Notes: a model not told the origin generated them from the sequence alone. DNA of 64,000 bases from an uncultured Bacilli bacterium (GCA_944332475.1 CALVKA010000002.1:391147-455146); one strand, 5' to 3'; numbered from the stretch's first letter, positions 4,372-61,229 are shown. Translations and numbers: made by a program.

Positions 4372-4821
4372 TTATAAATTGGATTTTCTCTTTCTCATTA
4401 GAAAGTCCAATCTAGAAGCTCTAGAAATCTGATTTTCTAATGTTCTATAAGAAATAGGAACAATAATTTCCTTATTATTATCAAAAATAACTTTTGTATT
4501 AATACTATCTACTTTTTCAAAAGACTTGACTCTTCTTAAAGAAATCCAAATACAATCTTCAGACCTTGGAGAAGTTGTTGGAAATACAATCAAATTATCA
4601 GTATCTTCAACAATAATAGGAACTTTATACTCTGCTCCTAAAATAGCTTTAGCACTATCCTTTCTTCCCTCATAAGTACTACCAAAATATTTACAGCTTT
4701 CCTCCATAATTTGAAATGGTGTTTGATGAATTAAAAAACGATCTTCATCCTCATACACCAAGCTTTCCATAGATTCATTAGGCATAATTGCTAATGTTCC
4801 CTTATTAATTTCATATTCCAT
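4372..4821 (-). CDS. comK: ComK-family competence transcription factor; start at second Met (MEYEIN...), which has RBS GAGGGGG
   Basis: Translation aligns by eye along its whole length with B. subtilis ComK: YEINKGTLAIMP, CKYFGSTYEGRK, LIVFPTTSPRSEDCIWISLRRVKSF, VPISYRTLENQISRASRL. The ORF track starts at 4842, but that ATG has no RBS. Confidence 0.7.
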   Translation of the reverse strand: MEYEINKGTLAIMPNESMESLVYEDEDRFLIHQTPFQIMEESCKYFGSTYEGRKDSAKAILGAEYKVPIIVEDTDNLIVFPTTSPRSEDCIWISLRRVKSFEKVDSINTKVIFDNNKEIIVPISYRTLENQISRASRLDFLMRKRKSNL

Positions 4822-4920
4822 AATATTCCCCCTCTCAAACATGAAATTGCAATTAGAATATCAACTAAATCTGTCTAATTTTGTCGAAAAAAATCATTTC
4901 ATATATATTATTCGAAAAAA

Positions 4921-4959: not shown

Positions 4960-6084
4960 TTAATAAGTACGAATTGGTAATACTAATTGAGTTAATGTTT
5001 CATCTTCACTTGATTTAATTAAAATTGGTTTAATCTCTCCTACAAAATGAATATCTACAGTTTCTGTTGAAAAACTTTTTAAAGCTTCCATCATATATTT
5101 TGCACTAAATGATATTTTAATATCTTCATCATTATTTTTAGTAATAGGCATTTTTTCTTCAACACGACCAATTTCTACAGAAGAACTTTTTAATACCAAT
5201 ATATCCCCTTTTGTTTCCAATGTAACGATATTTTTTTCCTTATCACTAGTTAATATACTAACACGATCAATTACATCGTAGAAGGCGTTTAAATTGGTAC
5301 TTACAATTAAATTAGAATCTTCAGGCAATAAATTAGAAGTATTTGGATATGTTCCATTAATTAAACGAGATTCAAATTTTAAATTTCCAGTTTTAAATAA
5401 AATCTTATTATTAAAGACATGTAATTCAATATCTCCATCTTCATCATCTATAATCCTAGAAAATTCTAAAATATTATGACTTGGAATAACAATATTATAA
5501 TTCTCTTCACTAGCACTTTCTAATTTTACAACTTTTCTTGCTAAACGATAAGAATCAGTCGAATTACATTCCAATACATCCCCTACTATATTAAAATTAA
5601 TACCTGTAAGAACTGGTTTACTTTCTTCATTAGAAGCTGCAAATGCTGTCTGATTAACAATATCCTTAAATATAGAAGCTTTAATATGTACTTTCTTCTT
5701 ACTTTCTTCTAATCCGATATTAGGATACTCACTCTCACTTATACCATTTAAATTAAATTCGCTATTTTCTGTATAAATTAAAATTTTTAATTCATCTACT
5801 ACTTCTATATTAATATATTGATCAGGTAACTTACGTACAATATCTAATATATATTTTCCCTGAATAATAATACTACCTTCACTTTCAATTTTAAAGTCAT
5901 CATCATTAGCCTCAATCATAGTTTGAATAGTAATATCATTATCACTAGCTGTTAATATTAATCTTTTTTTCTTTACCTCAAACTTAATACCAGCAAGAAC
6001 TGGAATAAGATTCTTAGTAGAGATTGCTTTTGATACTTTATTTAATGCATTCAATAATAATTCTTTTTTAATCGTTAATTTCAT
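4960..6084 (-). CDS. dnaN: DNA polymerase III beta subunit (sliding clamp)
   Basis: 374 aa with three-domain clamp-like architecture. N-terminus MKLTIKKELLLNALNKVSKAIS is typical of DnaN. Immediately downstream of dnaA. Confidence 0.95.
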   Translation of the reverse strand: MKLTIKKELLLNALNKVSKAISTKNLIPVLAGIKFEVKKKRLILTASDNDITIQTMIEANDDDFKIESEGSIIIQGKYILDIVRKLPDQYINIEVVDELKILIYTENSEFNLNGISESEYPNIGLEESKKKVHIKASIFKDIVNQTAFAASNEESKPVLTGINFNIVGDVLECNSTDSYRLARKVVKLESASEENYNIVIPSHNILEFSRIIDDEDGDIELHVFNNKILFKTGNLKFESRLINGTYPNTSNLLPEDSNLIVSTNLNAFYDVIDRVSILTSDKEKNIVTLETKGDILVLKSSSVEIGRVEEKMPITKNNDEDIKISFSAKYMMEALKSFSTETVDIHFVGEIKPILIKSSEDETLTQLVLPIRTY

Positions 6085-6215
6085 TTATATTCCTTCTTTC
6101 TTTTTTATTTTTATTATTATTACTGTGGAAAAAGTGAAAAACTAAAATTTAACCAGTTTCTACAATGATTTTATCATATTTTTTATTGTGGAAAAAGAAA
6201 AGTTTCTCATCTTTT
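6085..6215. promoter_or_regulatory. oriC part 2: AT-rich DNA unwinding element plus DnaA-box-like sites in the dnaA-dnaN intergenic region
   Basis: TGTGGAAAA (6124-6132) and TGTGGAAAA (6188-6196) are reverse complements of TTTTCCACA. AGTGAAAAA is a weaker box. A 6100-6123 poly-AT tract ttttttatttttattattattac could be the unwinding element. Confidence 0.6.
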
Positions 6216-7607
6216 TTACACAACCCCTATATCCTTTTTTAATTTTTCAATAATATTAGCTAAATCTTTGTTGACTTTAATTTCTTTTTCTATTTTTTCA
6301 ACAGAATGCATTACTGTAGTATGGTCTTTTCCACCAAATTCTGTTCCTATCTTTGGAAAAGACTCATTTGTCATTGTTCTACAAAGATACATAGCGATTT
6401 GCCGAGGAAAAGAAATATTAGAACTTCTCTTTTTACTTCGAATATCTTCAACTGATATTTGAAAATATTCCGAAACTATTTTTTGAATTCTTTGAATATC
6501 ATTTTTTTCTCCCATACCTTTACTAATAAAGTCCTTCAGAGCTTCTATTGCTAAATCCAAAGTGATTTTTGCCCCACCCATTATTGTTGAGTAAGCAATC
6601 AGTCTAGTAATAGACCCTTCCAATTGTCTAACATCCGTTCCAATATTAGAAGCAATATATTCTACTACATCATCAGGTATTTCCTGCTCAAAATTTCCAG
6701 CAATAATTTTCTTTTTTAAAATTTCGGTTCTTAAAGCAAAATCAGGGGGGAAAATATTAACCGTTAATCCCCAACAGAAACGAGTTCTCAATCGATCTTC
6801 CAAAAGTTTTAAATCGTCTGGAGAACGGTCTGAGGAAATAATAATTTGCTTACTATCATTATAAAGACTATTAAAAGTATGGAAAAACTCTTGTTGTGTT
6901 TGAGTAGCCCCACCTAAAAACTGAATATCATCGATAATTAACACATCGATATTACGGTATTTGTTTTTAAAAAAATCTACATAATTGAAATTAGTCCCCT
7001 TCTCGTCTTTTTTATTGATACCAATAAAATCTTGAATAAATTGATCTGATGTAACATATAGCACCCTACGATTACTATTTTCTGTAATATAATTTCCAAT
7101 AGCATGCATTAAATGAGTTTTACCAAGACCACTATTTCCATATATAAATAAAGGATTATACATATTACCGGGATTTTCAGCAACAGACAAGGCAGCTGCA
7201 TGAGCAAATTTATTACTATTACCAACAATAAAATTATCAAAAGTATATTTGCTTTTTAAATTTGTTTGTATTTGATTATGAGGAACCCCAGAAATTTCAT
7301 TAGTTTGAACCACCATTTCTTCCTCATGCTCTTTATTATTATTCTCCCCCTCTTCTTCAATTTCTTCTTTTAATAGAAATACCAATTCAAAATTTGTTCC
7401 TGTAATATCATTTAAATGATTTAATATTAATTCAGAATAATTATCGGCTAAATGTTTTTTATGAATCGGCATAGGAACAATAATATAAGCTTTGCCGTTA
7501 TCTAATTTATATAATTTTGTATCTTTAAACCAAGTATCAAAGGATAGAGAGGTCAAATCGTCTTTTACTTCAGATAGAAATTTTGACCATAAAATATCTA
7601 CATTCAT
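6216..7607 (-). CDS. dnaA: Chromosomal replication initiator protein DnaA
   Basis: AAA+ Walker A (GNSGLGKTHLMHAIG), Walker B (DVLIIDDIQFL) and C-terminal DnaA-box-binding helix. Start is set at ATG 7607 (MNVDILWSKF), which has RBS GGAG 8 nt upstream; the track's 7625 start is a TTG. Confidence 0.95.
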   Translation of the reverse strand: MNVDILWSKFLSEVKDDLTSLSFDTWFKDTKLYKLDNGKAYIIVPMPIHKKHLADNYSELILNHLNDITGTNFELVFLLKEEIEEEGENNNKEHEEEMVVQTNEISGVPHNQIQTNLKSKYTFDNFIVGNSNKFAHAAALSVAENPGNMYNPLFIYGNSGLGKTHLMHAIGNYITENSNRRVLYVTSDQFIQDFIGINKKDEKGTNFNYVDFFKNKYRNIDVLIIDDIQFLGGATQTQQEFFHTFNSLYNDSKQIIISSDRSPDDLKLLEDRLRTRFCWGLTVNIFPPDFALRTEILKKKIIAGNFEQEIPDDVVEYIASNIGTDVRQLEGSITRLIAYSTIMGGAKITLDLAIEALKDFISKGMGEKNDIQRIQKIVSEYFQISVEDIRSKKRSSNISFPRQIAMYLCRTMTNESFPKIGTEFGGKDHTTVMHSVEKIEKEIKVNKDLANIIEKLKKDIGVV

Positions 7608-44204: not shown

Positions 44205-44723
44205 ATGAAAAAAGCAATTGTCATTTTGGCTATCATAATAACCATATTAGCTATAAATAAAGAAGATAAAATAGTAATTCCCAAAGATGCGATTCGTTTT
44301 AGAGTTATTGCCAATAGCAATGAAGAACAAGATCAATCTATAAAAAAAGAAGTCGTAGAAAACTTAAATGGAGAAATCAGAAAACTGACGATTTTAGACA
44401 CCTCATTAGAAAATTCTAGAAAAAATATAAAAAACAGAATACCAGAATTTTCTAAAATTGTTGCCAAAACTTTAGAAAACAACAAAATAGATCAACCCTA
44501 TACCATAGATTATGGCATGAATTATTTTCCAGAAAAAGAATATAAAGGAATAATATATGAAGAAGGAGAATATGAATCTCTTGTCATTACATTAGGAAAT
44601 GGAAAAGGAGACAATTTCTGGTGTGTGCTATTTCCTCCATTATGTTTGCTAGATACAGAAACAGATTCCGAAAATGTAGAATATACCTCTTTTGTAAAAG
44701 AATTGATAGACAAGTATTTTTAA
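44205..44723 (+). CDS. spoIIR: Stage II sporulation protein R (SpoIIR), the sigma-E processing signal
   Basis: Signal/TM N-terminus, IRFRVIANSNEEQDQSIKKEV and GKGDNFWCVLFPPLC, matching the conserved SpoIIR blocks (RxHVIANSD...; NWWCVLFPP). Confidence 0.8.
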   Translation: MKKAIVILAIIITILAINKEDKIVIPKDAIRFRVIANSNEEQDQSIKKEVVENLNGEIRKLTILDTSLENSRKNIKNRIPEFSKIVAKTLENNKIDQPYTIDYGMNYFPEKEYKGIIYEEGEYESLVITLGNGKGDNFWCVLFPPLCLLDTETDSENVEYTSFVKELIDKYF

Positions 44724-51816: not shown

Positions 51817-52488
51817 TTGGTAAAAACTTATAATGAGGTGAAAAAAATGAAAAGAAGAAAATTAAAACCATACGTATTACCAACACTATTGCTTTTAGCT
51901 ATTACAAGTATTATCTTTGGAACGGCAATGATAACAAACAATTTGAAAGAAGAAAAACCAGATGATAGCCCTACAAGTTACGTTACAAGTACAATCCTAG
52001 AGGAAGAAGAACCTGTAATTAATGAAACAAAAACAATGATTAATCCATATACAGATACTACTGTAACAATTGGTAAAAACTACTATGACTATAAAGCAGA
52101 TGCAGAAACACAAGAAAAGTCAATCATTTATCATGACAACACATATATGCAAAACTCTGGTACAGACTTTGTAAGTGAGAATGTCTTTGATGTTGTAGCT
52201 GTACTAGATGGAAGCGTAACGGACGTAAAAGAAGATGATACATTAGGAAAAGTGGTAGAAATTAAACACGATAATGGATATATAAGCATTTATCAAAGCT
52301 TATCAGAAGTAAGTGTTAAAAAAGGTGATATGATAACTCAGGGACAAGTGATTGGGAAAAGTGGTACAAACGAATTAGATAAAGATATGGGGAATCATTT
52401 ACATTTTGAATTATATGTAAATGGACAAGTAGTAGACCCAGCACTTTATTTAAATAAAGAGTTAGAAACTTCCGAAAATAAAGAGTAA
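51817..52488 (+). CDS. Membrane-anchored M23/LytM-domain protein, SpoIIQ-like
   Basis: Single N-terminal TM; LytM domain with HLHFE motif intact, but no HxxxD in the first motif (YHDNTY). Lies directly upstream of mbl/mreB, as spoIIQ does in clostridial spoIID-spoIIQ-spoIIID-mbl clusters. Terminator at 52481-52502. Confidence 0.5.
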   Translation: MVKTYNEVKKMKRRKLKPYVLPTLLLLAITSIIFGTAMITNNLKEEKPDDSPTSYVTSTILEEEEPVINETKTMINPYTDTTVTIGKNYYDYKADAETQEKSIIYHDNTYMQNSGTDFVSENVFDVVAVLDGSVTDVKEDDTLGKVVEIKHDNGYISIYQSLSEVSVKKGDMITQGQVIGKSGTNELDKDMGNHLHFELYVNGQVVDPALYLNKELETSENKE

Positions 52489-54824: not shown

Positions 54825-55556
54825 ATGCTGAACTTTATTATTTGTGAAGATGAACCAGAGCTATTAAAGGAATATAAAAATCAGATTGATAAATTTATGA
54901 TGAAGTATGATATTGAATATACGTGTTATACTTTTGATTGTTATAATGCAAAATGGAAGAAAGTAGCGAAAGAGATAAAAGGCTTTAAAATATTTTTATT
55001 AGATATTAGAACAGAAAAAGGTTCAGGTATAGATGCAGCTAGAATGATAAGAGAAGAATTTGATGATTGGGTATCTATGATAATTATGATATCAGGTTAT
55101 GCAGAGTATAAGTATGAAGCACTAGGAAAAAGATTGATGCTAGTAGATTTTATAAACAAGCTAGATCACTCTGAACAAAAACTACAAGATGCACTATTAA
55201 TTTGTATGAAACACTATGATAATAAATATAAATGTTTAAGATATACATATAAAAATGTAGCCTATAACATCGAGTTTAGAAGCATTATTAAAATAGAAAA
55301 AGAAATGGACAGTAAAAGATGTTTGATAACGACTGAAGAAGGAGAATATCCAATTCAAGGCACATTAAACGAAATATTAAAGAAATTAGATAAAAGATTC
55401 TTTAAATGTAATAGAGCAGTAGCAATTAATATTGAACAAGTACAAAGTTACAATTTTACAAAGAATGTAATAAAATTTAAAAACGGTGAAGAATTCAAAG
55501 AAACTTCAAGGAGTAAAAAGAGGGAGATGTTTAATCATGTTAGAGGTGTTTGTTAA
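54825..55556 (+). CDS. agrA: LytTR-family response regulator (AgrA-like)
   Basis: Receiver domain (ICEDEP...FLLDIRT...) plus a C-terminal LytTR DNA-binding domain (FFKCNRAVAINIEQV). RBS AAAGAGGAG. Confidence 0.8.
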   Translation: MLNFIICEDEPELLKEYKNQIDKFMMKYDIEYTCYTFDCYNAKWKKVAKEIKGFKIFLLDIRTEKGSGIDAARMIREEFDDWVSMIIMISGYAEYKYEALGKRLMLVDFINKLDHSEQKLQDALLICMKHYDNKYKCLRYTYKNVAYNIEFRSIIKIEKEMDSKRCLITTEEGEYPIQGTLNEILKKLDKRFFKCNRAVAINIEQVQSYNFTKNVIKFKNGEEFKETSRSKKREMFNHVRGVC

Positions 55557-56841
55557 TTTTATTAATTGCTTTTTAATGTCATTAGTCGGATTTTATATTA
55601 TAAAAATTTTAACGAAATCAGAAGTTAAAATATATGAATTTAAAGTTATTGGATGGTTATTATTAGATACAATCATTCCTACATATTTGCAAGCTAATAT
55701 TTATGTTGAAATAAAACCGCTGATAATATATTGTATAAATATATTAGCTTATAAACAAATATTCGATTTGCATATTGATGATGCGATTATAGTTGCTGGA
55801 ATAGCAATGTTGTTAAATTTGATAGGTGATATACTGATTTCTATTGTAATGAACATTTTATTTACAAACGATATAGAATTAATTAGTAACGTAGTAGCAA
55901 GTTTTCTAAAAAATACAATAGTTTCAGTTCTTGCATTATTATTAATAAATATTAAAAAAATAAAAGAAAAATTATGTGATTTCTATAATAATATAAAAAA
56001 CAAGAAGAAAGTATCAACTGTTGTGTTTTTTTCACTAACAATTATTATCTTCTGTATTCTTGGGTTCCACATATATGTATCGTCACATTTTGATATTTCT
56101 TATTTAACAGCAATACTAACAATAGCAATATTATGGACATTAATAATTATTTTTATAAATAGTAGGAATAAATATAATTATTTGATAAAAGAATATGATA
56201 CATTATTTTCATACGTTCAAAACTTTGAAGATTGGATAGAGCAAGAACAATTAAACCGACATGAGTATAAGAATCAATTAGCTGTACTACGCTGTCTTAC
56301 GAAAGAAAAGAAGGTGAAGGATAAAATTGATGAGATATTGGAAGACAATATCAACATTGAAGGTCAAGCAGTCACCAACCTAAAGAACCTTCCTAAAGGT
56401 GGAATTAGAGGTTTAATGTATTATAAGGCAGCCATTGCTCAAAAACATAAAATAAATTTGACAACAGATGTCAGTATAGAAGCAAAAGGTATTTTATCAA
56501 AATTATCAGAAAAAGATATAAGAATTCTTTGTAAGTTAATTGGAATTTATTTTGATAATGCAATTGAAGCTGCAGCTGAAAGTAGAAAAAAGAATTTAAC
56601 AATCGAAATATATGAACTAAAAGATAAAGTGAGTTTTGTCTTTTCTAACACATTTAAACGTCATAAAAATATGAAAGATAGAAATAAAAAAGGAGTTTCA
56701 TCTAAAGGAGAAGGTAGAGGGAATGGATTATATTTTGCTTCTAAATTAATAAAAGACAATCCATGGCTAGAAGAAAAGCAAGAAATTATTGATGGTTATT
56801 ATATTGAACAATTGACAATAAAAAAGAATATCAATAAATGA
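55537..56841 (+). CDS. agrC: AgrC-like GHKL sensor histidine kinase (HPK10 family)
   Basis: Six to seven N-terminal TM helices. H-box RHEYKNQL (cf. AgrC HDYKNH). N-box and G2 box KGEGRGNGLYFASKL. ATG 55537 with RBS AAGAGGGAG overlaps the regulator's 3' end. Confidence 0.8.
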   Translation: MLEVFVNFINCFLMSLVGFYIIKILTKSEVKIYEFKVIGWLLLDTIIPTYLQANIYVEIKPLIIYCINILAYKQIFDLHIDDAIIVAGIAMLLNLIGDILISIVMNILFTNDIELISNVVASFLKNTIVSVLALLLINIKKIKEKLCDFYNNIKNKKKVSTVVFFSLTIIIFCILGFHIYVSSHFDISYLTAILTIAILWTLIIIFINSRNKYNYLIKEYDTLFSYVQNFEDWIEQEQLNRHEYKNQLAVLRCLTKEKKVKDKIDEILEDNINIEGQAVTNLKNLPKGGIRGLMYYKAAIAQKHKINLTTDVSIEAKGILSKLSEKDIRILCKLIGIYFDNAIEAAAESRKKNLTIEIYELKDKVSFVFSNTFKRHKNMKDRNKKGVSSKGEGRGNGLYFASKLIKDNPWLEEKQEIIDGYYIEQLTIKKNINK

Positions 56842-56850
56842 TATTCTTTT

Positions 56851-56973
56851 TTAATCTTGAAATACATCAATTGAATCTGGTTCATCATTAAACCACCATG
56901 CACACCCTAAACTTGCTGCCCCTGTTGCCAACATGGCTACTGCAGCCAATAACATAGATAATCTTTTTTTCAT
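56851..56973 (-). CDS. agrD: AgrD-like autoinducing-peptide precursor (40 aa), not in the ORF track
   Basis: Codon-by-codon translation gives MKKRLSMLLAAVAMLATGAASLGCAWWFNDEPDSIDVFQD. It has an amphipathic/hydrophobic leader, a Cys plus four hydrophobic residues (CAWWF, cf. C. perfringens CLWFT and S. aureus CDFIM), then an acidic proline-containing tail. RBS AAAGGAG lies 8 nt upstream. The gene sits immediately downstream of agrB. Confidence 0.6.
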   Translation of the reverse strand: MKKRLSMLLAAVAMLATGAASLGCAWWFNDEPDSIDVFQD

Positions 56974-57005
56974 ACTACGCTCCTTTACCAAAAATATATT
57001 AAATA

Positions 57006-57608
57006 CTATTTTGTAGTATTTAACCTTTTATAATTGTTATATGGTTGCCCAAATAACGTATAAGTAAGTGGACTAACAATAATTGCCTGAACAATTAATG
57101 CTGACAAAATAATCGCCGTCCAATATTCTTGATGTAATAGTACAATTGTTAATGTATAGATAAAACCAATCGTAACCGTAAGAATTTTACGAATGATTCT
57201 CTTTCTTTTGTTTGAAAGAGGTCTTTTTTTTGTATCTGCAGGTGCAAATAGTAAATAATGGGTAATACAAATTGCACAGATGACATATACAATAAAATTA
57301 GGTAGGTGTATATGTAACAATAAATATGGTATTGCAATAAAATTAAAAATTGAAAAGATCAAACATTGATAACTTTTCTCTGCATGAAAGCCAAATCCCG
57401 TATATCGAATAATATTAAATAAAATTGTTACAATAACGAATTCAAATAACATATTCAAAATAATTGCTAGAATGAGTAGTATAACCAACTTTGTTATGGT
57501 AAGGTATATTCCCTCTAAGCCATAATTTAATTTTTTCTTGTCGTAGTCAGAAAAGGATTGGTATTTACAGATAAGGTCCATGCAACGATTTAAAAATAAT
57601 TGTTTCAT
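57006..57608 (-). CDS. agrB: AgrB-family pro-peptide processing membrane endopeptidase
   Basis: Conserved catalytic His/Cys region (RYTGFGFHAEKSYQC, cf. RRHAHGAHAPSSFWC) and the APADTKKRP loop (cf. APAATKKKP). Four to five TM helices. First ATG at 57608; the track start 57632 is a TTG. Confidence 0.8.
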   Translation of the reverse strand: MKQLFLNRCMDLICKYQSFSDYDKKKLNYGLEGIYLTITKLVILLILAIILNMLFEFVIVTILFNIIRYTGFGFHAEKSYQCLIFSIFNFIAIPYLLLHIHLPNFIVYVICAICITHYLLFAPADTKKRPLSNKRKRIIRKILTVTIGFIYTLTIVLLHQEYWTAIILSALIVQAIIVSPLTYTLFGQPYNNYKRLNTTK

Positions 57609-57690
57609 ATACAACCACCAAACCTCAATCAATCTTATTATATAACTATAATAAGATTAAAAACAAAAAAATCAATCAAATAATTAATTG

Positions 57691-57780
57691 AAAATAAATT
57701 TTGTCGAATTTTGTCGAAAAAAGAAGAATACAAACCATCAAAGTAACTACCAATAGCAATTAACGGAATTTTTGTCGTTG
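57691..57780. promoter_or_regulatory. agrBD upstream region with tandem 10-bp repeat TTTTGTCGAA x2 plus a third TTTTTGTCG copy
   Basis: 57699-57708 and 57709-57718 are identical. 57769-57777 is a degenerate copy. An A4-N5-T4 AT-box (aaaataaatttt) lies at 57691-57702. The same TTTTGTCGAAAAAA string occurs at 4879-4892 upstream of the comK-like gene. Confidence 0.4.
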
Positions 57781-57854
57781 GGTTGGCAAAAATTGGTATG
57801 ATGTAATCACCAAGGAGATAAACGATGCTGTTGGTAGAAATGAGGTGCAAGAAC

Positions 57855-58076
57855 ATGATGGTTGGACGCGTAAAATGGTTCAACAATGATAAAGGCTATG
57901 GCTTTATTGAATACAAAGAAAATGAAGATGTATTCGTACACTATTCAGCAATAGAATTAGAAGGTTATAAGACTTTATCTGAAGGACAACTAGTAGAATT
58001 TAAATTGGTTGAAACAAGCAAGGGATACCAAGCTTTAAATGTAAAATTAGTTAAAGAAACTGCTAATGCTAAATAG
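57855..58076 (+). CDS. csp: Cold-shock protein (CspA family)
   Basis: [19 protein letters not shown] with RNP1/RNP2 motifs. Start 57855 with RBS GAGGTG; the track's upstream extension is spurious. Confidence 0.85.
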
Positions 58077-58127
58077 TAGTTTTTTTTTCTAAATTATGCT
58101 ATACTCTAAGTATAAGGAGGTGATAGT

Positions 58128-58658
58128 ATGGAAATTATTATTCATGGAGATAAACTTAAAATTACTGATTCTATGAAAGGCTATATTGAAGAGAAGCTAG
58201 ATAAGTTAAATAAGTACCTAGAAGATAGCGAAAATGTTCGCGCAACCGTCATAGTAAAAGTAAAAAATCATGAACAACGAGTAGAAATTACCATACCACT
58301 AAAAGCATTTATTTTAAGATCAGAAGAGTCAAAAGATGACTTCTATGCAGCTGTCGATAAAACTATCGATAAGCTAGAAAGACAGATAAGAAAGAACAAA
58401 ACACGTATTATGTCAAAACAAGTGAAAACAAATCGTGACTTTGTAGTATCTGCTTTCTCAGATGAGGATTCATCTGATGATAAAAAAATCTTAAAGAGAA
58501 AGAAAGTTGAAGTAAAACCAATGAACGAAGAAGAGGCAATACTTCAAATGGAGCTCTTAGGTCACCAGTTCTATATGTATAAGGATAGTGAGACAAATCA
58601 AGTTGCAGTTGTTTATAAAAGAACAGATGGCAACTATGGTGTAATCGAATCCGAATAG
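58128..58658 (+). CDS. hpf: Ribosome hibernation promoting factor (long HPF / YvyD)
   Basis: N-terminal S30AE domain and a C-terminal dimerisation domain (VVYKRTDGNYGVIE). Canonical position upstream of secA. Terminator at 58668-58700. Confidence 0.85.
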   Translation: MEIIIHGDKLKITDSMKGYIEEKLDKLNKYLEDSENVRATVIVKVKNHEQRVEITIPLKAFILRSEESKDDFYAAVDKTIDKLERQIRKNKTRIMSKQVKTNRDFVVSAFSDEDSSDDKKILKRKKVEVKPMNEEEAILQMELLGHQFYMYKDSETNQVAVVYKRTDGNYGVIESE

Positions 58659-58730
58659 TAAGAAAATGGAAGAATAACCTTTTATTCTTCCTCTTTTTTT
58701 GGTAGAATAATTAGTTAAGGAGATGTTAGA

Positions 58731-61229
58731 ATGAAATTATTAAGAAAATTGTTTGACCACGAATATAAAGAGCTAAAAAGATTTGCAGTTCTAGCGGATA
58801 AAATCATGGACTTAGATGAAGAATATTCTAAGTTAACAGATACAGAATTAAAAGGTAAAACGGAAGAATTTAAAGAAAGATTACAAAATGGAGAAACTTT
58901 AGAAGATATATTAGTAGAAGCTTTTGCAACTGCAAGAGAAGCCTCTTACCGTGTATTAGGAGAAAAACATTTTTATGTACAAATTTTAGGTGGTCTTGCT
59001 ATTCATTATGGTAATATAGCTGAAATGAAAACAGGTGAAGGAAAAACCTTAACTTGTGTACTTCCTGGTTATCTAAATGCCTTAACAGGAGAAGGAGTAC
59101 ATGTTATCACAGTTAACGAATATTTAGCAGGACGTGATGCACAGTGGATGGGAGATATTTATCGTTTTCTTGGTTTGACCGTAGGAGTTAATACAAGAGA
59201 TTTAAGTCCCAAAGAAAAACAAGAAGCATATAATTGTGATATTTTATATTCTACAAATAATGAAATTGGATTTGACTATTTAAGAGACAATATGGTAATT
59301 AGAAAAGAAAATAGAGTACAAAGACCATTAAATTTTGCAATTATCGATGAGGTTGACTCTGTTTTAATTGACGAAGCAAGAACACCATTGATTATATCTG
59401 GTGGACAAATGAATAGTGCTAACCTATATTTAGATGCAGATCATTTTGCTAAAGGATTAAAAAATGAAGATGATTATGTTTACGACGAAAAAACAAAAGC
59501 AGTTACATTAACTGAAAAAGGTGTAGAAAAAGCAGAAAAATCATTTCATATTAAAAATTTATATGATATTGAAAATGGCTCTTTAGTACATTATATTAAT
59601 CAAGCATTGCGTGCTAACTATGCTATGAAAAAAGATGTGGATTATGTTGTACAAGAGGATGAAATCGTAATTGTTGACCAATTTACTGGACGTTTAATGA
59701 AAGGTCGTGCTTACTCTGATGGACTTCATCAAGCAATTGAAGCAAAAGAAGGAGTAACGATTAATCAAGAAACTAAGACTTTAGCAACTATTACATTCCA
59801 AAACTTATTCAGAATGTATAAAAAATTATCAGGTATGACTGGTACGGCTAAAACTGAAGAAGAAGAGTTTAGAAATATTTATAATATGTACGTTATTGAA
59901 ATACCTACCAACAAACCAATTGTTCGTGTAGATGCTCCGGATTTAGTTTATGCTACAAAAGAGGCAAAATACAAAGCAATTATTAACTTTGTAAAAGAAC
60001 GCTATGAAAAAGGACAACCAGTATTAATCGGTACGATTGCTATTGAAACCAGTGAATTAATCAGCGATTTATTGAAGAAAGCACACATTCCCCACGAAGT
60101 GTTAAATGCTAAAAATCATGCTCGTGAAGCTGAAATAATTTCAAAAATTGGACAAAAAAGATCAGTAACCATCGCAACAAACATGGCTGGTCGTGGTACC
60201 GATATTAAACTATCAGATGATATTAGAAAATTAGGAGGACTTTGTGTTGTTGGTACAGAACGTCATGAGTCTCGTCGTATTGATAATCAGTTACGTGGTC
60301 GTTCTGGACGTCAGGGAGACCCAGGTTATACACAATTCTTCGTATCTATGAAAGATGACTTAATGGTACGTTTCGGATCTGATAGAATTGGTGAAATGAT
60401 GAAAACAATGGGACTTGGCGATCAAGCTATTCAAAGTAAGACATTCACCAAATCTATTGGTACTGCTCAAAAACGTGTAGAAGGAAATAACTTTGATATT
60501 CGTAAACAATTACTACAATATGATGATGTTATGAATGATCAAAGAGAAATCATGTATGCGAAACGTAATAGAATTCTAGATAGTGAATCTATTCATGAAA
60601 TGGTTCTAGACACTTTCCGTCATCATATGGAAGATTTAGTAAAATCTCATTTAGCTCCAGAAGGTGCCTTAGGAAAAAAAGACTATGAAGAAATAACAGA
60701 ATATGTAAACGAAAACTTGTTAAAAAATGATATCAAGTTATCTGATATAGAAAACTTATCTGATGAAGAAGTAATTGATATTTTAGTAAAGAAAATTACA
60801 GAAGAATATGAGGCTAAAATAAAAGAAATTCCACAAGAAGTAACAGATGAATTTGAAAAAGCAATCACACTACAAGTAGTAGATAATTATTGGATGGAAC
60901 ATATCAATACTATGTCACACTTAAGAGAAGGAATTCATTTAAGAGGTTATGCTCAAGAAGACCCACTTCGTGCTTATACCATGGAAGGTTATGACATGTT
61001 CGATGAAATGTTACAAAAAATTGATAGAGATGTAACAACCTTCTTACTAAGAGCAGAAATAAGACAAAACATTGAACGTAAAGAAGTGGTGAAAAAGAAA
61101 GTTACTAATGAAGGTGGTAAAGAACCTGCCAAAAAACAACCAAAGAGAGTAAAGAAAATTGGTAGAAATGAGCCATGTCCATGCGGCTCAGGAAAGAAAT
61201 ATAAGAATTGTTGCGGAAAGAACGCATAA
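58731..61229 (+). CDS. secA: Preprotein translocase ATPase SecA
   Basis: DEAD-motor Walker A (MKTGEGKT) and Walker B. C-terminal zinc finger CPCGSGKKYKNCCG. 832 aa. Confidence 0.95.
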   Translation: MKLLRKLFDHEYKELKRFAVLADKIMDLDEEYSKLTDTELKGKTEEFKERLQNGETLEDILVEAFATAREASYRVLGEKHFYVQILGGLAIHYGNIAEMKTGEGKTLTCVLPGYLNALTGEGVHVITVNEYLAGRDAQWMGDIYRFLGLTVGVNTRDLSPKEKQEAYNCDILYSTNNEIGFDYLRDNMVIRKENRVQRPLNFAIIDEVDSVLIDEARTPLIISGGQMNSANLYLDADHFAKGLKNEDDYVYDEKTKAVTLTEKGVEKAEKSFHIKNLYDIENGSLVHYINQALRANYAMKKDVDYVVQEDEIVIVDQFTGRLMKGRAYSDGLHQAIEAKEGVTINQETKTLATITFQNLFRMYKKLSGMTGTAKTEEEEFRNIYNMYVIEIPTNKPIVRVDAPDLVYATKEAKYKAIINFVKERYEKGQPVLIGTIAIETSELISDLLKKAHIPHEVLNAKNHAREAEIISKIGQKRSVTIATNMAGRGTDIKLSDDIRKLGGLCVVGTERHESRRIDNQLRGRSGRQGDPGYTQFFVSMKDDLMVRFGSDRIGEMMKTMGLGDQAIQSKTFTKSIGTAQKRVEGNNFDIRKQLLQYDDVMNDQREIMYAKRNRILDSESIHEMVLDTFRHHMEDLVKSHLAPEGALGKKDYEEITEYVNENLLKNDIKLSDIENLSDEEVIDILVKKITEEYEAKIKEIPQEVTDEFEKAITLQVVDNYWMEHINTMSHLREGIHLRGYAQEDPLRAYTMEGYDMFDEMLQKIDRDVTTFLLRAEIRQNIERKEVVKKKVTNEGGKEPAKKQPKRVKKIGRNEPCPCGSGKKYKNCCGKNA

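Follow-up and report, generated by a model that had tools for sequence, protein, structure and literature searches.

A convergent agr-type quorum-sensing locus in the RF39 lineage, with predicted Spo0A boxes at its pheromone operon

Near one end of a 64,000-nucleotide stretch of DNA from an uncultured Bacilli bacterium (GCA_944332475.1, CALVKA010000002.1:391147-455146; this whole stretch is hereafter the window, and positions are counted from its first nucleotide) lie four genes that an initial reading, made from the sequence alone, had taken for a complete agr-type quorum-sensing locus, split into agrA-agrC on the plus strand and agrB-agrD on the minus strand. The question raised by this locus is whether it is indeed a working pheromone system, and what controls it. 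All four open reading frames were found where that reading had placed them, on the same strands, and with family matches for all four genes the interpretation as a complete system in two convergent units is borne out; we regard the identification of the locus as agr as secure. Taken as a whole, the locus is probably best explained, with a confidence clearly above even but well short of certainty, as a functional agr-type cyclic-peptide quorum-sensing system made of two convergent operons that share one terminator, with agrBD under the control of Spo0A. The four components are present, their arrangement is conserved, and the peptide and its receptor are hypervariable. The agr mechanism would be an ordinary one, the convergent architecture is unusual and lineage-wide, and the wiring predicted between Spo0A, agr and comK would be new. 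For comparison, 83 related loci (L001-L083) were examined, of which 80 are from species-level genomes.

The plus-strand unit begins with agrA (54825-55556), which encodes a response regulator of 243 aa with a receiver and a LytTR DNA-binding domain. The LytTR profile that the sequence-only reading had proposed as a check gave a strong match (PF04397, E 8e-14), while the receiver (PF00072) scored 28.2 bits, just below the 30.2-bit cutoff, and the NCBIfam AgrA model aligned over the full length at 9.5e-13, under its cutoff. The top match among solved structures in the PDB was S. aureus AgrA (3bs1, 6e-6), and orthologues in relatives are syntenic and 36-87% identical. The second gene, agrC (55537-56841, plus strand), encodes a polytopic sensor histidine kinase of the AgrC/HPK10 type (434 aa); its probable start is the ATG at 55537, giving a 20-nt overlap with agrA, as in relatives. 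The expected HATPase_c_5 domain, a GHKL domain typical of AgrC-like kinases, was detected (PF14501, 7e-7), and the NCBIfam AgrC model matched residues 16-408 at 1.3e-13, but with 50.9 bits against an equivalog cutoff of 500. In the alignment with its top PDB match, the S. aureus AgrC kinase module (6e52, 6e-11), the His box RHEYKN (with the phospho-acceptor His), the N box DNAIEA and the G box KGEGRGNGL are all in register, and there are about six hydrophobic segments within residues 1-207.

On the minus strand, agrB (57006-57608, probable ATG at 57608) encodes a 200-aa membrane endopeptidase predicted to process AgrD. It gave a strong match to the AgrB profile PF04647 (5.4e-31, 107.8 bits against a cutoff of 23), and H75 and C82 are invariant across 12 orthologues, with the same 7-residue spacing as H77/C84, which we take to be the catalytic pair of S. 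aureus AgrB. The predicted autoinducing-peptide precursor, AgrD (MKKRLSMLLAAVAMLATGAASLGCAWWFNDEPDSIDVFQD, 40 aa), is encoded by agrD (56851-56973, minus strand), located 32 nt downstream of agrB and preceded by a GGAG ribosome-binding site 8 nt before the ATG. The Pfam profile proposed as a check for this peptide, the staphylococcal PF05931, did not match these peptides; the AgrD family model TIGR04223 was matched at E <= 0.1 by 25 of 49 AgrD orthologues (best 9.6e-8). The conservation of the 40-aa frame beside agrB, on which the earlier interpretation depended, was confirmed in the relatives whose contig extends there, in which AgrD always adjoins agrB and 64 distinct orthologues were collected. 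All 64 have the form leader-G-C-X5-[D/E/G]-E-P-tail, in which the hydrophobic X5 occurs as 62 different segments, 45 of these variants having Trp as their second residue.

The peptide of the window is predicted to form a ring of five residues, CAWWF, or of six, CAWWFN, with a DEP...D tail after it. By analogy, the ring could comprise Cys plus four residues, as in staphylococci, or Cys plus five, as in C. acetobutylicum (PMC12312760); the six-residue form is slightly favoured, because the conserved tail begins only at C+6. AgrB would cut the acidic tail of the 40-aa AgrD after C-X4 or C-X5, closing the thiolactone, and the leader, which resembles a signal peptide and has an invariant Gly as its last residue before the Cys, would be removed, so that the product may be tail-less. 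The peptide would then be sensed by the polytopic AgrC, which would phosphorylate the LytTR regulator AgrA.

The window has a G+C content of 29.7%, spans the replication origin (gyrB-recF-comK-dnaN-dnaA) and belongs to RF39, genus CAG-877 (Candidatus Faecimonas). The relatives of the locus are thus RF39 / Candidatus Faecimonas (CAG-877) and not Erysipelotrichia or Clostridia, as had been supposed; AgrB relatives came from metagenome-assembled genomes (MAGs) labelled Candidatus Faecimonas, 'Bacilli bacterium', 'Tenericutes' or 'Mycoplasma sp. CAG:877', and Candidatus Faecimonas corresponds to GTDB genus CAG-877 in the order RF39 (PMC8035907; PMC10868615 supplement). RF39 bacteria, frequent in the guts of humans and animals, are uncultured; their genomes measure about 1.4 Mb, and little is known of their behaviour. 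The gene order hpf-csp / agrB-agrD >< agrC-agrA / glycosyltransferase-4-mreB (>< marking the convergence) is identical in all 83 loci where the contig suffices, and in the 80 species-level genomes, wherever both units are on the contig, the convergent layout is located between tagO/mraY-like–mreB and csp–hpf–secA. All four agr genes are intact in nearly all 80 species. Since this order is constant while AgrB identity falls to 43%, with MreB at about 70-97%, the locus is ancestral and vertically inherited, with its convergent layout maintained. The right part of the locus was also found in a 373-kb ENA scaffold (100% identity over 56,855-59,076) and in a contig of 1,424,580 bp (98.9% identity over 56,901-59,076). 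The literature searched contained no report of agr in RF39 or of a convergent agr locus, which is not proof that none exists, and a search for surveys of agr gene order gave nothing specific.

The two units face each other across a gap of 9 nt between the stop codons (56842-56850), one fewer than the 10 nt first given. This junction coincides with a hairpin (56819-56853) that takes in the 3' end of agrC, the gap and the agrD stop codon. The inverted repeat is perfect, with 15-bp arms (56819-56833 and 56839-56853) and a 5-nt loop, and spans both stops; its folding energy is -14.1 kcal/mol (z = -5.5), and none of 200 shuffled sequences was as stable. An A-run borders it on one side and a T-run on the other, as in a bidirectional intrinsic terminator, and a hairpin with A-tract, stem and T-tract is found at the same place between the stops in most relatives. 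Judged by its sequence, it looks like a bidirectional terminator shared by the convergent units.

Additional DNA was observed between agrD and agrC in several relatives. A second full-length agrC paralogue (436 aa) lies there in L055 (5769-7370), another is probable in the insertion of L078 (5766-7090), and in L028 an IS3-like transposase is inserted (5765-7170); shorter extra sequences of 218-638 nt are present in L003, L009, L048, L067 and L076.

The signal and its sensor are both hypervariable. Nucleotide identity to close relatives is about 80-90% in the flanks, about 70% in agrD and about 50% in the sensor half of agrC (55,600-56,200). Contigs L215-L224, which are 98.5-100% identical to the window over agrB-secA, carry the differing peptides CAWWFN, CVWALW and CLVWIV, and a MAG whose sequence is 99-100% identical to the window from 57,700 rightwards (L004) has CWWWTV. 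There are at least 3-4 AgrD alleles inside the window's own species and, with differing peptides on contigs nearly identical to the window, these are therefore within-species pherotypes. An apparent frameshift in agrD was seen in L218, a long-read contig. When the window was compared with L004 (CALVSS010000002.1), identity was 99-100% over about 57,700-59,500 (the promoter region, csp, hpf and secA), and about 81-89% leftwards from the agrB start through agr, the glycosyltransferase and mreB; this sharp mosaic boundary at 57,600-57,700 points to recombination with a breakpoint at the border of the agr locus. One consequence of the convergent layout is that the conserved kinase half separates the variable peptide from the variable sensor, which bears on how matched alleles stay together when recombination occurs. 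A pheromone system that is conserved, intact and rapidly diversifying implies that RF39 bacteria communicate and probably discriminate between strains; the approximately 60 different G-C-X5 cores can be synthesised and tested as signals, cross-inhibitors and cultivation aids.

For the control region, 27 csp-agrB intergenic regions were aligned. Four conserved blocks were found: the csp ribosome-binding site with an extended -10 (TGnTAnnAT), a motif designated R1, a pair of tandem heptads, and a TATAAT. The latter (57637-57642, minus strand), the proximal -10 of agrBD, is conserved in at least 80% of the regions; it precedes the agrB start by about 25-35 nt and is accompanied by a poor -35. A palindrome with 12-bp arms (57631-57658) encloses it in the window. 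Similar long, perfect, A+T-rich palindromes (arms of 10-21 bp) overlap the agrBD TATAAT in 17 of 82 loci (the window, L023-L028, L032-L034, L036-L038, L040, L059, L064 and L071); their sequence varies among species while the symmetry is retained, and they might serve as operator, cruciform or leader hairpin.

The tandem heptads (TTCGACA-AAA-TTCGACA, 57702-57718, minus strand) are located 59 nt upstream of the TATAAT and are predicted Spo0A boxes, reading TGTCGAA-TTT-TGTCGAA on the plus strand with 0 mismatches; within the same segment AATTTTGTCG occurs twice (57697-57716). That direct repeats upstream of agrB are shared with a comK-like promoter had been noticed before, and this proved correct: TGTCGAANNNTGTCGAA, with up to one mismatch allowed, occurs in the 64 kb only at 57702-57718 (0 mismatches) and at 4872-4888 (1 mismatch). 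The second site (TTCGACA-AAA-TTAGACA, minus strand; TGTCTAA-TTT-TGTCGAA on the plus strand) precedes by 8 nt the extended -10 (TGATATTCT) of comK (4372-4821, minus strand; PF06338 at 4e-47), which encodes a short ComK of 149 aa from the ATG at 4821. Together with the heptads, this -10 element takes up 4855-4888. Tandem heptads with no more than one mismatch are present in 44 of 84 agrB loci, at -97 to -117 from the ATG, and nowhere else in 1.48 Mb. In six relatives the comK promoter has two to three degenerate heptads with a 10-bp period, always ending 8 nt before TGnTAnnnT and spanning about -24 to -40 (to -50 where there are three). The comK gene itself is situated between dnaN and recF near the origin; the order dnaA-dnaN-comK-recF-gyrB is conserved in relatives, whose ComK is 74-90% identical.

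In B. subtilis and C. difficile the Spo0A box has TGTCGAA as its core, between A/T flanks, and a consensus box upstream of spo0A marks auto-regulation (PMC3485338); in B. subtilis, Spo0A~P binds PcomK directly, with one box over the -35 (PMC3297582). From the match to this core, the shared repeats are best read as a Spo0A operator common to agrBD, comK and spo0A and not as LytTR-style AgrA boxes, a reading that we consider slightly more probable than the account of the whole locus, although here too substantial room is left for error. The agrBD operon would have a TATAAT promoter with a poor -35 and two perfect Spo0A boxes (10-bp period) at about -72 to -88, and the position of the heptads, 59 nt upstream of the -10, is compatible with activation; for agrAC, the sole promoter would be a weak one immediately after the terminator of the preceding gene. 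At comK the heptads overlap the -35, like the repressing boxes of B. subtilis. At both promoters, control of either sign may be envisaged.

Is there a Spo0A in this lineage to use such boxes? With an approximate B. subtilis Spo0A query, tblastn gave no spo0A match either within the 64 kb of the window or among the agr loci. A codon-biased pattern of the Spo0A recognition helix led to 120 A+T-rich metagenome contigs, of which about 40-50 (up to 1.28-1.38 Mb in length) form a divergent Spo0A group (VERAIRHAIEVSWNRG); a profile of this group retrieved the orthologues P0313 and P0317, the latter named Spo0A and assigned to a 'Bacilli bacterium', both of which keep the recognition helix SRVERAIRHAIEV. 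P0313 is probably linked to an agr locus, its longest contig having exactly the length (186,429 bp) of JAVBQF010000001.1 ('Bacilli bacterium'), the carrier of L081. Upstream of spo0A, TTTTCGACAAAATTCGACAAAA followed about 55 nt on by TATAAT was found in 12 of 43 RF39-like loci; the tandem module did not occur elsewhere in 385 kb, nor upstream of spo0A in any of 57 loci of clostridial type. The RF39-like spo0A (L225-L229) is located within a glycolytic cluster, gap-pgk-…-tpiA-spo0A-(AAA_14/DUF4143)-gpmI, and in L226 and L227 a gene for a prepilin-type N_methyl protein lies just upstream of it. The window itself carries spoIIR (44205-44723, plus strand; PF09551 at 3.5e-37), a sporulation-specific signalling gene in a genome of the 1.4-Mb class, and the gene preceding mreB (51817-52488) encodes an M23 peptidase, anchored in the membrane by its N-terminus, that might be SpoIIQ-like. 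RF39 has been predicted to be able to sporulate, and related lineages are reported to be without the classical sporulation sensor kinase (PMC10868615).

As the same tandem boxes are found at agrBD, in the comK -35 region and at spo0A, we propose that Spo0A~P would directly control autoinducer production, competence and its own synthesis, a circuit that would couple cell-density signalling to the stationary-phase or sporulation decision. If true, the shared Spo0A-type operator would indicate how cell density, DNA uptake and sporulation come to be coupled in a reduced genome, and the hypothesis is cheap to test. A more far-reaching version, which we regard as doubtful, is that agr, comK and spo0A of RF39 share one Spo0A operator as a minimal circuit deciding between pheromone, competence and sporulation, in which the strain-specific peptide could be a main input to Spo0A and csp-hpf could be the AgrA effector that replaces RNAIII.

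Where, then, would AgrA bind? Sites of LytTR regulators consist of 9-bp repeats with a period of about 21 bp. The control region holds a motif, R1 (TTCCGTTAATTGC, 57756-57768, minus strand), with a weaker copy, R2, 21 bp away (57735-57747), and because this period matches that of LytTR regulators the pair is the best candidate for an AgrA site. The R1 consensus, TTCC(G/T)TnAAtTGT, consists of columns that are invariant or nearly so in 70 non-identical loci; a scan of R1/R2 offsets peaked at +21 (6.03 identities against a background of about 4.1), the window holds a single perfect R1 match, and the distance from the R1 start to the first heptad is fixed at 50 nt, sometimes 39-40. The candidate site lies upstream of the proximal start of agrBD by about 105-138 nt, and occupies positions -41 to -74 relative to the promoter predicted for the divergent csp (57855-58076, plus strand; PF00313 at 1e-25), a cold-shock protein gene that is syntenic in all loci and whose predicted extended -10 (TGGTATGAT, 57794-57802, plus strand) falls in the conserved TGnTAnnAT block. 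One possibility is that csp, perhaps together with the downstream hpf, could be a LytTR-controlled output of the locus. An agrB-sense promoter (TGnTAnnnT) overlapping R2, which would place the heptads just past the start as at abrB, was considered and set aside, such an element being present at that offset in only about 14 of 73 loci.

Other identities of the heptads have to be weighed against Spo0A. If the heptads were an AgrA (LytTR) operator, auto-induction of agrBD by AgrA~P would go together with activation of comK and spo0A, and quorum sensing would stand upstream of competence and sporulation, not downstream of Spo0A; the boxes indeed belong to the control region of agr and recur at comK and spo0A, clostridial agr acts upstream of sporulation, and the restriction of the tandem upstream of spo0A to RF39-like loci (12/43, against 0/57 of clostridial type) fits this view as well. 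However, 7-mers at a 10-bp period do not resemble the 9-bp repeats of LytTR sites, which recur about every 21 bp, and 50 nt away there is a motif pair spaced by exactly 21 bp. The heptad also agrees fully with the Spo0A core TGTCGAA, down to the A/T flanks (PMC3485338), and the Spo0A of the lineage retains its recognition helix. AgrA boxes were not preferred, on account of the 10-bp period and the exact Spo0A core, and we consider this explanation unlikely. Still less likely is that the heptads bind another repeat-recognising regulator, such as a CtsR-like one, or are mere promoter elements, with no Spo0A-mediated link between agr and comK. The CtsR operator, (A/G)GTCAAA-NAN-(A/G)GTCAAA, is also a direct repeat of heptads with a 3-bp spacer, but its consensus differs at two positions per heptad and the known CtsR targets are clp genes. 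As to promoter elements, TCGACA as a -35-like hexamer agrees with TTGACA at five of six positions and a promoter scan pairs it with a weak -10, yet the distances of the comK boxes from the -10, 11 and 21 nt, are both unsuitable for a -35, and at agrB no conserved -10 follows the proximal box. All 17 positions of the tandem site are conserved across species with diverged flanks, which speaks for a site bound by a protein. Matches to ComK boxes (AAAA-N5-TTTT) and to a CodY box were also considered, and by inspection neither was convincing.

A different scenario concerns the locus itself: it might be decaying or rewired, the 40-aa frame being a lipoprotein-like signal peptide, with AgrC and AgrA sensing something else. 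The leader (MKKR-hydrophobic-GAASLG-C) does resemble a lipoprotein signal peptide, a few AgrD orthologues weakly match lipoprotein models, and the peptide of the window is under the AgrD cutoff. We nevertheless regard this as very improbable, considering that the four genes are intact in nearly all 80 species and that the peptide is always beside agrB with its invariant Cys and [DEG]-E-P tail; the co-diversification of X5 and the AgrC sensor, also within species, argues for a working signal-receptor pair.

Several points weigh against the proposed system of Spo0A-controlled agrBD. Every step of the mechanism is deduced from sequence, including the ring size (5 or 6) and the N-terminal processing of AgrD, and the window's AgrD scores 14.6 bits with TIGR04223, for which the cutoff is 19. 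R2 is weak, and the candidate AgrA site is too distant for classical LytTR activation of agrBD and better placed for csp, so that autoinduction through it is conjectural. The tandem box is missing from 25 of the 84 loci, among them L081, the one linked to a spo0A-bearing contig, and spo0A was not seen on contigs of the window's own species among the 120 Spo0A matches listed. Since the tandem occurs in 12/43 RF39-like and 0/57 clostridial-type spo0A loci, a lineage-specific factor other than Spo0A is possible. Finally, a machine-learning study scores RF39 genomes as non-sporulating (PMC12536801).

With S. aureus agr the locus shares the same four proteins (AgrB with its His and Cys, AgrD with its Cys and acidic tail, an HPK10 AgrC and a LytTR AgrA), the top matches to solved structures, which are the AgrA and AgrC of that species, and a peptide and sensor domain that are hypervariable, with alleles within the species. 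It differs in architecture: S. aureus agrBDCA, transcribed from P2 and divergent from P3/RNAIII, is one operon, whereas A-C and B-D converge here on what looks like one shared terminator, and the variable peptide and sensor segments that are contiguous in S. aureus are split in RF39 by the conserved kinase half. Instead of RNAIII, the divergent neighbour is csp-hpf, and an Rfam scan detected no RNA family in the agr locus; at -40 to -75 of agrBD there is no AgrA-type repeat pair, and Spo0A-type boxes are predicted instead.

Clostridial agr loci (such as agrBD and agrCA of C. acetobutylicum, agr2 of C. difficile and agrBD of C. perfringens), which are often accessory or present in multiple copies, resemble the RF39 locus in the signal-peptide-like leader, the hydrophobic ring with Trp at the second position, the E-P in the tail and the functional tie to sporulation, which is predicted here; in RF39, by contrast, there is a single agr locus, found at the same point of the chromosome across the lineage. 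Since clostridia are already known to have agrBD and agrCA as separate units, as well as 6-residue rings (PMC12312760), the split that had been presented as a departure from staphylococcal agrBDCA is real, but less exceptional than implied. The linear order A-C-D-B is also that of C. difficile agr2 (agrA2-C2-D2-B2); there, however, the genes are described as co-directional and an insertion in agrA2 is polar on all four, while the RF39 units converge (PMC4453554).

The predicted boxes also have counterparts among known Spo0A operators. Those at abrB of B. subtilis are head-to-tail tandem boxes with a 3-bp spacer, as in RF39, and we know of no direct Spo0A operator described on an agr pheromone operon. 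Boxes of B. subtilis and of C. difficile spo0A and sigH share the 7-bp TGTCGAA core with A/T flanks (PMC3485338); boxes upstream of spo0A fit auto-regulation, and boxes over the comK -35 have a B. subtilis precedent (PMC3297582). Strictly tandem boxes upstream of spo0A were found in the RF39-like group only, where the sites are predicted.

Three further features of the window were recorded. Two long proteins are encoded on opposite strands, one of 608 aa (32186-34012, plus strand) with only a weak match to the HopA1 effector family (2.7e-6), the other of 581 aa (35627-37372, minus strand) with no Pfam match. A ribosomal-protein leader, L31-Firmicutes (RF03156, 49107-49138, plus strand), scored 38.5 bits and was the sole Rfam family in the window at the gathering threshold.

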